From: Escherichia coli
Lineage (GTDB): Bacteria > Pseudomonadota > Gammaproteobacteria > Enterobacterales > Enterobacteriaceae
Assembly: GCF_003334405.1 (NCBI RefSeq)
Contig: NZ_QOWM01000004.1
Strand: one strand, 5' to 3'
Length of the DNA stretch: 64,000 nt
Part shown: positions 3,170-3,550 of the stretch, in pieces
Numbering within the stretch: position 1 is the stretch's first letter
Layout of the letters: the number at the start of each line of letters is the position of its first letter
Notes under the pieces: model-generated
Told to the model about the DNA's origin: nothing
The model's database searches: none
The model's input: the letters and a program-made list of their open reading frames with translations, nothing else
Position numbers and translations under genes: made by a program

Positions 3170-3550
3170 TTACTGCGTGGTACCGTCGGTTTTGGTATCG
3201 ACATCATTATTGATGCCATCACCGGTTTGTACCTTTTTATTGATATCCGGACAGCGACCATCTTTGCACATGGTGTTCTTGTGCTCTTCATCTTTGGTCA
3301 TTCCGTCATTGTTCATTGAAGAACCATCCGAATGCAGCATTGTGCCGCCAGAACCGGTATTTACCCCGTTATTGTCGACGTTATTTGGCGCGACATTTTC
3401 ACGGGCGTCAGGGGCTACCTGGCCCGCATCAGCTGCGGCGTTTGCCTGGCCGTTATTAGTTTGCGCTCCGCTATCGGCAGCCAGTGCGGCACCGCTGGCA
3501 AGGCTTAGAGTGGCAGTCAGAAATAATGTGGCCAGTTTTGTCATTTTCAT
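3170..3550 (-). CDS. ybgS: Secreted low-complexity protein of unknown function
   Basis: 126-aa ORF with N-terminal signal peptide ([24 protein letters not shown]) followed by Asn/Gly/Asp-rich low-complexity sequence. Confidence 0.85.

Follow-up and report, generated by a model that had tools for sequence, protein, structure and literature searches.

YbgS, a secreted and predicted disordered protein of the RpoS regulon in Enterobacterales, as a possible periplasmic hydrophilin-like protectant

Introduction

What might a small exported protein without a predicted fold be doing in the envelope of stationary-phase enterobacteria? This question is raised by ybgS, a gene found between aroG and zitB in the 64,000-nucleotide stretch of Escherichia coli DNA analyzed here (hereafter the window). 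In stationary-phase E. coli and Salmonella, its product ranks with the most abundant small proteins and with those that depend most tightly on RpoS, and a wrong "homeobox protein" label that it still carries enters network analyses (PMC12282026). The findings on ybgS change no established concept; a protein of this kind, periplasmic, predicted to be disordered and closed by one invariant disulfide loop, could extend the small set of periplasmic stress protectants.

Results

The window carries a known gene at a conserved locus

The open reading frame at 3170..3550 on the minus strand comprises 126 codons followed by TAA. It is identified as ybgS, as the original prediction had named it, because its DNA is 100% identical to that of annotated E. 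coli genomes and because its product gives a full-length, above-threshold match to the YbgS-like Pfam family PF13985 (model positions 1-124 of 124, E 8.6e-62, 207.3 bits). In E. coli K-12 the family is represented by b0753 (UniProt P0AAV6); the window copy lies at the same locus and does not differ from common E. coli alleles. PF13985 was the sole Pfam match at E <=10, with no homeodomain, DNA-binding, EF-hand, thioredoxin, Dsb or metal domain, while an NCBIfam search returned sub-threshold matches only and a PADLOC search found nothing. The gene is an already known one, with its family, expression and processing all documented before.

YbgS proteins are confined to Enterobacterales, being found in about 207 of 100,044 species genomes and in 61 clusters among 1.84 billion representatives, all from this order. 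Within it, the gene is kept tenaciously: it is present in each of 5,426 complete E. coli genomes and even on a 2.7 Mb contig of a Sodalis endosymbiont. Its arrangement is just as stable, with aroG divergent from ybgS in 80/80 species loci and zitB downstream on the same strand in 78/80, as is also seen in the window, where 113 bp lie between ybgS and zitB and 315 bp between ybgS and aroG. The whole block galK-galM-gpmA-aroG-ybgS-zitB-pnuC-nadA is conserved, so that the adjacency of ybgS and zitB is explained by vertical inheritance. Two departures were noted: in Pantoea, a two-component system is inserted between ybgS and zitB, and the Sodalis locus with ybgS shows no zitB. As a side observation, in-frame duplications within ybgS segregate in E. 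coli.

ybgS is a monocistronic member of the RpoS general-stress regulon

An intrinsic terminator (GGGAGAG-CGGAGT-CTCTCCC, then TTTTAATTTT; 3119..3148, minus strand) lies about 20 nt past the stop codon, and a hairpin followed by a T tract was found in 76/77 distinct downstream regions from related genomes, built from 34 different stem sequences. Operon coupling with zitB was rejected because this intervening terminator is conserved, in agreement with the earlier description of a gene standing alone between zitB and aroG.

On the other side of the gene, the best conserved element on the ybgS half of the ybgS-aroG spacer is a putative sigma-S type -10, CTACAAT (C at -13), followed by TTTCTAA (3704..3710, minus strand). 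Across 71 distinct upstream regions, conservation of its columns is 80-99%, and CTACAAT, CTACACT or CTAGACT followed by TTT is found in E. coli, Citrobacter, Cedecea, L006, L009 and Pantoea. Judging from this conservation, CTACAAT (3710-3704) is likely the sigma-S -10 of ybgS, which would place the transcription start near 3697-3700 and make the 5' UTR about 150 nt long. A consensus scan also picked out a proximal sigma-70-like match (CTGAAA-16-TATATT, 3612..3639, minus strand, with TATATT at 3617-3612), which was demoted below the distal element as the weaker candidate because it is absent as a conserved element in other genera. A sigma-54 pattern in the same spacer belongs to a class of matches that is not enriched window-wide (21 matches against 12.2 expected).

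Between the putative promoter and the gene lies a highly conserved leader block (AATGCACTGTTGGAAGAGGTTATCCGACATAACGACCATAACAGGAGC; 3556..3603, minus strand), with columns 80-99% conserved in the 71 upstream regions, which runs into a Shine-Dalgarno sequence, AGGAG (3557..3561, minus strand), read from the sequence 6 nt before the ATG and invariant in the alignment. A structured RNA in this leader was rejected: the RNAalifold covariation term was unfavorable (+2.44), a single compensatory pair was seen and the single-sequence fold had a z of -0.59, while an Rfam scan of 3000-3900 returned only MicX, below threshold (17 bits versus 75). A leader open reading frame (ATG at about 3602; 50 amino acids, 3471-3623) was rejected as well, since it has no Shine-Dalgarno sequence, since its ATG is missing in Cedecea and L009 and since conservation shows no 3-nt periodicity.

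Published data place ybgS firmly under RpoS control, with an 82-fold dependence in strain EDL933 (PMC2907692) and a drop from 4003 reads to 6 upon rpoS deletion in Salmonella (PMC4330354). The gene also belongs to the osmotic-upshift set (PMC2634741), is induced 15-32-fold by a LolCDE inhibitor together with osmY, cpxP and Rcs-controlled genes (PMC5105897) and 5.4-fold by acrylic acid (PMC6699081), and appears as a hub among genes up-regulated in multiple stresses (PMC9501238). In colony extracts, YbgS is detected among the prominent intact-protein peaks, so that a lack of expression, which would have counted against the original prediction, is contradicted by strong expression on record (PMC8629258, PMC5594050). 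Thus, ybgS is monocistronic and part of the RpoS general-stress regulon; its expression, processing and RpoS control were published already, beyond what the original prediction could know. The only knockout result found is that Salmonella cells lacking ybgS are better competitors when they carry a costly plasmid (PMC9599605), which shows a cost of ybgS and not a function.

YbgS is exported, processed and disulfide-bonded

Residues 1-24 (3479..3550, minus strand) form a Sec-type signal peptide without lipobox cysteine or twin-arginine motif. Top-down tandem mass spectrometry located the cleavage site after ALA and detected a mature protein of 102 residues from which these 24 residues were gone (PMC8629258, PMC5594050); the mass that we calculated for this mature chain, 10,464.9 Da, equals the published value. 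The same studies deduced from MS/MS a disulfide between Cys95 and Cys100 (C71-C76 in mature numbering; codons at 3266-3268 and 3251-3253), so that both secretion and the single CKDGRC cysteine pair, as foreseen from the sequence, are borne out in vivo (PMC8629258, PMC5594050). Signal peptide, mature mass and disulfide of the window protein agree with published data on E. coli O104:H4 and BL21. The protein thus combines a cleavable signal peptide with a single C-x4-C pair, as expected of the YbgS family, and in a tolA mutant it was found among the contents of outer-membrane vesicles alongside periplasmic proteins (PMC7973035). Taken jointly, the identity of ybgS, the export and the disulfide of its product and its control by RpoS are almost certain.

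The mature chain is predicted to be disordered and carries two conserved blocks

The composition of mature YbgS is unusual, with 14.7% N, 12.7% D, 12.7% G, 9.8% A, 9.8% T and 4.9% Q, so that Asn, Asp and Gly together account for 40% of its 102 residues. The original prediction had described a low-complexity chain dominated by N, G, D, A, T and Q with repeated NN and DG motifs; this stands for the first five residues and for the motifs (five NN and five DG), but not for Q, which is too rare to be dominant. The chain holds one CKDGRC with its only two cysteines, has no F, W or Y and 12.7% hydrophobic residues, and, with a GRAVY of -1.15, is acidic (pI 4.4, net charge about -8). Among the 56 long open reading frames of the window, the YbgS precursor ranks top for N+D+G (33%, against a mean of 16% with an sd of 3.6%; z = 4.8) and reaches z = 5.2 for Asn, which makes its composition more than a matter of chance. 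Across genera, YbgS homologs keep 29-41% N+D+G and essentially no aromatics.

AlphaFold2, given 17- and 53-sequence alignments as inputs, returned two models with mean pLDDT of 49.2 and 51.3 and pTM of 0.16 and 0.12, in which no residue reached 70. The charge-hydropathy value of the mature protein falls below the boundary, on the disordered side, and sequence and profile searches found no PDB relative at E <=10. With no modeled fold, a disordered-type composition and no existing structure, mature YbgS is predicted to be intrinsically disordered, in keeping with the original prediction, and the confident structured-domain match that might have spoken against it was not found.

The mature protein divides into segments of unequal conservation. 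The N-terminal block (residues 25-66; 3353..3478, minus strand) follows the consensus NNGxANAAAxAGxxAPxAxQNxAPNNVDNSxIN with a mean top-residue frequency of 0.60; in an alignment of 53 sequences from many genera, N37 and P55 are invariant and N64 nearly so (>=90%). It is followed by a variable G/S/T/N linker (residues 67-83; 3302..3352, minus strand) that has the lowest conservation (0.33) and varies in length, and then by the Cys block with the C95-C100 disulfide loop (residues 84-106; 3233..3301, minus strand), which has the highest (0.76). Conservation peaks there in M-x5-HKN-x-MCKDG[RK]CPD, with C95, D97, G98 and C100 invariant and M84, H90, K91, N92, K96 and P101 conserved in at least 90% of the sequences of this alignment. 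The C-terminal tail (residues 107-126; 3173..3232, minus strand) ends in a conserved KTDGTxQ. Each of the 76 homologs examined carries two cysteines and no more. Family precursors range from 104 to 164 residues in length, and pI across the family runs from 4.2 to 9.2 (median 4.67). Comparison with Citrobacter koseri ybgS gave a dN of 0.084 and a saturated dS of 2.7; the resulting ratio of about 0.03 points to strong purifying selection.

Two sequence resemblances were set aside. A repeat finder reported internal 10-residue (30-nt) repeats, two pairs at 30-nt spacing, which were judged not significant because 17/24 in-frame-offset identities were reached in 21.5% of codon shuffles. YbgS also recalls the pentapeptide MXKDX proteins of TIGR02953, which are small and secreted, in that it has MTKDE and MCKDG ten residues apart; membership was rejected, with just these two units and 12.6 bits (E 0.098) against a curated cut-off of 41.

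Discussion

A tentative role as a periplasmic hydrophilin-like protectant

We tentatively propose that YbgS may act in the periplasm as a hydrophilin-like protectant, with a docking motif stapled by its disulfide, a reading that we hold with somewhat less than even confidence. The mature 10.5 kDa protein accumulates in the periplasm when cells are in stationary phase or under stress. According to this model, it would there act as a very hydrophilic and non-folding polymer that holds water and, under hyperosmotic, acid, envelope or starvation stress, sterically shields the proteins and surfaces of the envelope. Docking or nucleation would be the task of the helix and disulfide loop of M-x5-HKN-x-MCKDG[RK]CPD, the only strongly conserved element. 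Hydrophilins are recognized by a hydrophilicity index >1.0 and a Gly content >6% (PMC7448490). Mature YbgS has 12.7% Gly (family range 8.7-15.2%) and an index of 1.15, whereas its precursor, at 0.71, falls below 1.0; by these values the chain may qualify as a hydrophilin in its mature form, though not as a precursor. Homolog mature chains, defined by a crude cleavage-site rule, exceeded both limits in at least 65 of 76 cases, some of them lying right at the threshold.

Several points weigh against this proposal. "Hydrophilin" is an operational class and not a mechanism, and the literature found neither names YbgS a hydrophilin nor records an osmotic, desiccation or survival phenotype for ybgS, nor does it report that YbgS protects enzymes or membranes in vitro when they are partially dehydrated. 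Two position-specific conserved blocks with an invariant C-x-DG-x-C loop are more typical of a protein with a specific partner than of a bulk protectant, and restriction to one bacterial order might count against a generic protectant, which would be expected to spread more widely. A more elaborate version, which we find doubtful, would make YbgS the first described periplasmic hydrophilin, an Enterobacterales-specific, RpoS-driven and intrinsically disordered hydration shield of the cell envelope, held at one particular partner there by its invariant disulfide-stapled C-K-D-G-[RK]-C-P-D loop; the unusually conserved leader of ~45 nt (3603-3556) would tune its expression through an sRNA or an RNA-binding protein.

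Alternative readings

The conservation of the Cys block also suits a reading of YbgS as a specific ligand or regulator, in which the disulfide-stapled MCKDG[RK]CPD loop and the short helix preceding it would bind one envelope partner, with the disordered chain as a mere carrier; candidate partners are a sensor, a porin, a peptidoglycan enzyme or a protease, which would be modulated in stationary phase or envelope stress. Consistent with this, conservation is concentrated in that block and in its four invariant residues, the variable linker resembles a tether, and a block in lipoprotein sorting induces ybgS together with envelope-stress genes of Rcs and Cpx (PMC5105897). However, YbgS is about as abundant as HdeA and HdeB in intact-protein spectra (PMC8629258), which suits a stoichiometric protectant better than signaling. 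It has no known partner, and a one-motif model leaves the conserved N-terminal block unexplained; overall, we consider a ligand unlikely, though not far-fetched. It is improbable, for its part, that YbgS buffers cations or metals (Zn2+, Ca2+ or Cu) in the periplasm, possibly zinc exported by ZitB, in the manner of SilE and PcoE. These are periplasmic disordered metal sponges that carry many MxxH/HxxM motifs, are induced by metal and belong to efflux operons, and they resemble YbgS in size, signal peptide, disorder and an adjoining metal-efflux gene. The acidity of the E. coli protein (pI 4.4, net charge about -8), the conserved M84, H90 and M94 that flank the Cys pair and the position of ybgS directly upstream of same-strand zitB in 78/80 species loci, including distant genera, would all fit. 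Nevertheless, the mature chain has just 2 His and 4 Met (family medians 3 and 4) and neither MxxH nor HxxM, its charge is not conserved (family pI 4.2-9.2), and both cysteines are tied up in a disulfide in vivo (PMC8629258, PMC5594050). Nor does YbgS have an EF-hand or a DxDxDG calcium loop, its one [DN]x[DN]x[DN]G match (NVDNNG) having its Gly replaced in most genera (consensus NVDNSxIN). Co-transcription with the efflux gene is countered by the terminator between ybgS and zitB in 76/77 lineages. In Pantoea a two-component system lies between the two genes, and the Sodalis locus shows no zitB; ybgS is under RpoS and stress control, and no zinc response was seen in the literature found. The "metal-binding-like" composition of the original prediction is therefore not supported: His and Met are few, the cysteines are oxidized, no metal domain matches and the charge is not conserved.

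One may also ask whether YbgS does much today, as it could be a lineage-restricted gene that arose from the aroG-zitB spacer of an early enterobacterium and was captured by an RpoS promoter, with little present function and mainly a laboratory cost. The family is indeed confined to Enterobacterales and always at the same locus, its product is disordered and of low complexity, in-frame duplications segregate in E. coli, and loss of ybgS helps plasmid-bearing Salmonella to compete (PMC9599605). Against this stand the dN/dS of about 0.03, which argues for purifying selection, the presence of ybgS in 5426/5426 E. coli genomes and on the Sodalis endosymbiont contig, and the conservation of motif, promoter, leader and terminator alike; moreover, a useless secreted protein made at high levels would be selected against. 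We thus give this idea little credence. The authors of the Salmonella plasmid-cost study conjectured that YbgS is a redox-active antioxidant acting through its two Cys (PMC9599605), which are invariant; this statement is a guess and not a result. The pair is spaced CxxxxC, unlike the CxxC motif of oxidoreductases with a thioredoxin fold; modeling predicts no fold for YbgS, thioredoxin and Dsb domains gave no match, and the cysteines were found oxidized as a stable small loop (PMC8629258, PMC5594050), which makes such an activity very improbable. A homeobox-like DNA-binding regulator has practically no chance of being correct, as it goes back to an old "putative homeobox protein" annotation alone, still present in UniRef names and in PMC12282026. 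This legacy reading is refuted because YbgS is exported to the periplasm; the protein is also processed, acidic and disordered, and has no homeodomain or DNA-binding Pfam match at E <=10.

Comparison with known stress proteins

The periplasmic hydrophilin-like protectant that we favor has counterparts among known stress proteins. The hydrophilin class was reportedly defined by Garay-Arroyo et al. in 2000. Its RpoS-regulon members YciG, YmdF and YjbJ are, like YbgS, small, Gly-rich, very hydrophilic, disordered, RpoS-dependent and abundant in stationary phase; these three are cytoplasmic, whereas YbgS is periplasmic, shares no sequence similarity with them, has a disulfide loop and reaches the hydrophilicity threshold as a mature chain only. 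Asr, the acid-shock periplasmic disordered protein of Enterobacteriaceae, is similarly small, low-complexity, stress-induced and made with a signal peptide. It is described as basic, rich in Lys, Ala and His, under acid control by PhoBR/RstAB and proteolytically processed, which sets it apart from the mostly acidic, Asn/Asp/Gly-rich and RpoS-controlled YbgS. Unlike YbgS, which has no predicted fold, OsmY (BON domains), YahO (DUF1471) and HdeA/HdeB adopt a fold or become disordered under certain conditions only. These four proteins share its compartment and are co-regulated with it by RpoS and by osmotic and envelope stress (PMC2907692, PMC4330354, PMC5105897), and they were co-detected with YbgS as prominent intact-protein peaks (PMC8629258), just as YciG, YmdF and YjbJ were seen alongside it in one top-down mass spectrometry experiment (PMC5594050). 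Zmo0994 of Zymomonas mobilis, which has no sequence relationship to YbgS and belongs to another phylum-level lineage, sets a precedent for a function of the proposed class: it is a LEA-like, hydrophilin-type protein with an N-terminal signal peptide, and its protective effect was shown by overexpression (PMC7448490).

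ybgS encodes an exported protein of outlying composition

The ybgS open reading frame, on the minus strand, runs exactly from 3170 to 3550 and comprises 126 codons and a TAA stop; an AGGAG is located 6 nt ahead of its ATG. The precursor starts with a hydrophobic N-terminus of 24 residues followed by 102 residues that contain 14.7% N, 12.7% each of D and G and 9.8% each of A and T, together with five NN motifs, five DG motifs, no aromatic residue and only two Cys, both of them within CKDGRC. Since ybgS ranks top among the 56 long ORFs of the window for its N+D+G fraction (z = 4.8) and for its Asn fraction (z = 5.2), its composition is a true outlier. 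The low-complexity character and the single Cys pair described in the original prediction were thus confirmed, as was the dominance of N, D, G, A and T, but not that of Q, which is hardly enriched (4.9%).

A Pfam search returned a match to PF13985 (YbgS) that spans the whole model (E 8.6e-62), and the protein belongs to this family by every feature tested. NCBIfam gave sub-threshold matches only, PADLOC gave nothing for ybgS, and membership in TIGR02953 was rejected (12.6 bits for a cut-off of 41). Many E. coli chromosomes match the 1-kb stretch around ybgS with 100% identity, and the ybgS stretch was found in 5426/5426 complete E. coli genomes, where it is annotated ybgS with zitB and aroG on either side. 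Of 5,433 matches to the region, two sit on plasmid-labelled records, which may correspond to misassemblies or to a chromosomal segment on a plasmid.

That the protein is secreted after removal of a signal peptide, as had been proposed, is borne out by two independent top-down mass spectrometry studies, which detected intact mature YbgS lacking its 24-residue signal peptide and inferred a Cys71-Cys76 disulfide (mature chain numbering; Cys95/Cys100 in the precursor); one of the two also reported a probable deamidation (+1 Da, somewhere in YbgS) (PMC8629258; PMC5594050). The mass that we calculated for residues 25-126 (10,464.9 Da) equals the published value. In such spectra, YbgS was classed with HdeA, HdeB and YahO as a "high copy, highly conserved" host protein (PMC8629258; PMC5594050), and the vesicles of a tolA mutant also contained it together with periplasmic proteins (PMC7973035). 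Export, cleavage, disulfide formation and high abundance of YbgS are established, as is its RpoS/stress control.

YbgS is predicted to be intrinsically disordered

AlphaFold2 gave no fold with an alignment of either 17 sequences (mean pLDDT 49.2, pTM 0.16) or 53 sequences (mean pLDDT 51.3, pTM 0.12), with no residue reaching a pLDDT of 70 in either model; short helical tendencies at residues 35-41 and 86-93 were the only ones seen, in models that are unreliable. Low hydropathy, the lack of aromatics and a charge-hydropathy position of the disordered type likewise speak for disorder, and sequence and profile searches retrieved no related solved structure. YbgS is thus predicted to be intrinsically disordered, without a stable fold, so that of the composition first described as disordered or metal-binding-like, the disordered part stands as a prediction.

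The family is restricted to Enterobacterales and retains an invariant Cys loop

YbgS forms a small family. Among 1.84 billion cluster representatives, HMMER run in filter-only mode retrieved 61 YbgS clusters, many of which are fragments, and a scan of 100,044 species (one genome each) found YbgS in ~207 species. Among the best 80 of these ~207, all named species are Enterobacterales, save one "Chryseobacterium" assembly, which is probably mislabelled or contaminated, and one "Proteobacteria bacterium" MAG. The locus labelled Chryseobacterium sp. 18061 (CACSKA010000002.1) carries an enterobacterial-type ybgS with 72% identity to the query and adjoining aroG and zitB; the study that produced it also includes a sister assembly with a Citrobacter label. 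The distant homologs belong to Rahnella, Nissabacter, Pantoea, Cedecea and Sodalis, to which the genome scan added Erwinia and Mixta.

In alignments, four segments can be told apart along the mature chain. The first is a conserved N-block (NNGxANAAAxAGxxAPxAxQNxAPNNVDNSxIN), whose top-residue frequency averages 0.60; it is followed by a variable, indel-bearing G/S/T/N linker (0.33). Next comes the Cys segment, the most conserved of the four (M-x5-HKN-x-MCKDG[RK]CPD-x-NKK; 0.76), and then a C-terminal tail ending in KTDGTxQ. C95, D97, G98 and C100 are invariant. Composition is also conserved, with 29-41% N+D+G, 0-1 aromatics and exactly two Cys in 76 homologs. Their pI has a median of 4.67 but reaches 9.2 in the most basic homolog, so net charge is not a conserved property in this mostly acidic family. 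This outlier is taken to be the homolog of a Rahnella-like locus (CP045665.1, 4001-4342), which is basic with a Lys/His-rich linker (HKKTHKTTDKAHHNMSKKTVDHKK).

Comparison with Citrobacter koseri gave a dN of 0.084 with saturated dS (ratio ~0.03), showing that purifying selection acts on ybgS. Some E. coli strains have in-frame duplications, 8-9 residues long, in the N-terminal half of mature YbgS; two such alleles carry nine (ANAAADAGQ) and eight (AALAADSG) additional residues at window positions ~3400-3480, and the E. coli-like variants among the listed homologs (>=90% identity) are between 117 and 135 residues long. These duplications and this length range indicate replication slippage in the low-complexity region.

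ybgS is a monocistronic gene in a conserved locus

As originally proposed, ybgS stands alone between zitB (113 bp away) and aroG (315 bp away). The aroG<- ->ybgS->zitB arrangement includes aroG in 80/80 species loci and zitB in 78/80, with one of the two exceptions being cut by a contig end, and its order is kept in distant genera too. A two-component system is inserted ahead of zitB in Pantoea, and no zitB was seen at the Sodalis locus. A larger conserved block, from galK to nadA, includes the ybgS/zitB adjacency, which is accounted for by vertical inheritance. Some 20 nt past the ybgS stop lies a GC-rich hairpin followed by a T tract (3148-3119 in E. coli). An element of this kind recurs in 76/77 distinct regions downstream of ybgS, where its stem takes 34 different sequences; this conserved terminator shows that ybgS is monocistronic rather than co-transcribed with zitB.

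Conserved upstream elements of a stress-induced gene

Transcription of ybgS is almost entirely RpoS-dependent, with an 82-fold dependence in E. coli O157:H7 EDL933 (PMC2907692) and a drop from 4003 to 6 reads upon rpoS deletion in Salmonella (PMC4330354). The gene belongs to an osmotic-upshift set (PMC2634741), is a hub among multi-stress up-regulated genes (PMC9501238), and is induced 5.4-fold by acrylic acid (PMC6699081). An inhibitor of LolCDE raises its expression 15-32-fold, along with that of osmY, cpxP and genes under Rcs control (PMC5105897).

Upstream of ybgS, a sigma-70-like match on the minus strand (3639-3612) is not conserved, whereas CTACAAT followed by TTTCTAA (CTACAAT at 3710-3704, minus strand) shows 80-99% conservation across 71 distinct upstream regions, with recognisable CTACACT or CTAGACT variants out to Cedecea and Pantoea. 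Having a C at -13 and a T/A-rich discriminator, this sequence resembles the sigma-S -10 consensus. We infer that CTACAAT is a candidate sigma-S -10 element of the RpoS-dependent ybgS promoter, which would imply a leader of ~150 nt. The last 45-48 nt of this putative leader (3556-3603, minus strand; AATGCACTGTTGGAAGAGGTTATCCGACATAACGACCATAACAGGAGC) are 80-99% conserved over 71 enterobacterial regions, as much as the coding sequence itself. Neither covariation nor unusual stability was seen in this block, which matched no Rfam family and contains no upstream ORF that is credible; an sRNA or an RNA-binding protein may bind there. A conserved TTCAAGATTCT box (3661-3671, minus strand) precedes the non-conserved proximal -35 by ~20 nt and could be an activator site (Rcs?) of a second, envelope-stress promoter.

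On the aroG side, a sigma-54-like GG-N10-GC element (TGGCGTTTTTCTTGCT; 3737-3752, plus strand) is directed towards aroG, this pattern being common by chance (21 matches in the window versus 12.2 expected). An RpoN genomic-SELEX peak was reported in the ybgS/aroG spacer (PMC8743547). A perfect TGTAAA-N6-TTTACA palindrome of the TyrR-box type (3778-3795, plus strand) shares TTTACA (3790-3795) with the aroG promoter, of which it is the -35 hexamer. The palindrome is near-invariant across genera and fits the known repression of aroG by TyrR.

YbgS would act as a periplasmic hydrophilin-like protectant

The ybgS gene, its family, expression, processing and regulation were already documented; added here are the domain-like anatomy of the chain and its invariant C-K-D-G-[RK]-C-P-D loop, the order-level restriction, fixed synteny and conserved terminator, and the candidate sigma-S -10 element with its unexplained conserved leader block. 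The main new value of the analysis lies in sharper, testable hypotheses on YbgS function. We propose that the mature chain would act as a periplasmic hydrophilin-like protectant. Hydrophilins have a hydrophilicity index >1.0 and >6% Gly (PMC7448490). The mature chain has an index of 1.15 and 12.7% Gly, and at least 65 of the 76 homologs satisfy both criteria; the precursor index (0.71) is below the threshold, which may be why whole-ORF screens would miss YbgS. The protein is co-regulated with, and was detected alongside, two cytoplasmic hydrophilins, YciG and YmdF, as well as OsmY, YahO and HdeA/HdeB, which are stress proteins of the periplasm (PMC8629258, PMC5594050, PMC2907692, PMC4330354, PMC5105897). 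YbgS thus resembles hydrophilins by composition and regulation, its protective activity being putative.

The chief objection to the protectant model lies in the invariant disulfide loop and the conserved N-block, both of which point to a specific partner. A model in which YbgS acts as a motif-bearing ligand of such a partner was therefore ranked second, as a possible but rather unlikely alternative to protection. Buffering of metal or cations appears improbable considering that a terminator precedes zitB, that His and Met are scarce, that the Cys are oxidised and that the charge is not conserved, and the metal-binding-like part of the original prediction found no support, given the few His/Met and the oxidised Cys. 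We give equally little credit to ybgS being mostly a cost-only orphan gene, against which strong purifying selection and universal retention argue. A literature search for ybgS knockouts gave a single result, in which Salmonella lacking ybgS was a slightly better competitor when bearing a costly IncHI2 plasmid (PMC9599605); its authors guessed a redox role from the two Cys, and a redox enzyme, which lacks support, is very unlikely. YbgS lacks the tested features of the SilE/PcoE, EF-hand, thioredoxin-like and homeodomain families. The "homeobox protein" label persists in UniRef names and at least one recent paper; this reading, to which we attach almost no probability, is refuted by periplasmic export and by a Pfam search that returned no DNA-binding domain.

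The CKDGRC loop (3251-3268, minus strand) includes D-G-R, and isomerisation of its Asp-Gly to isoAsp would give an isoDGR-type sequence resembling integrin-binding cyclic peptides. This resemblance is a curiosity only, because several genera have Lys or Ser in place of the Arg and because members of the family are found in bacteria associated with plants and insects.
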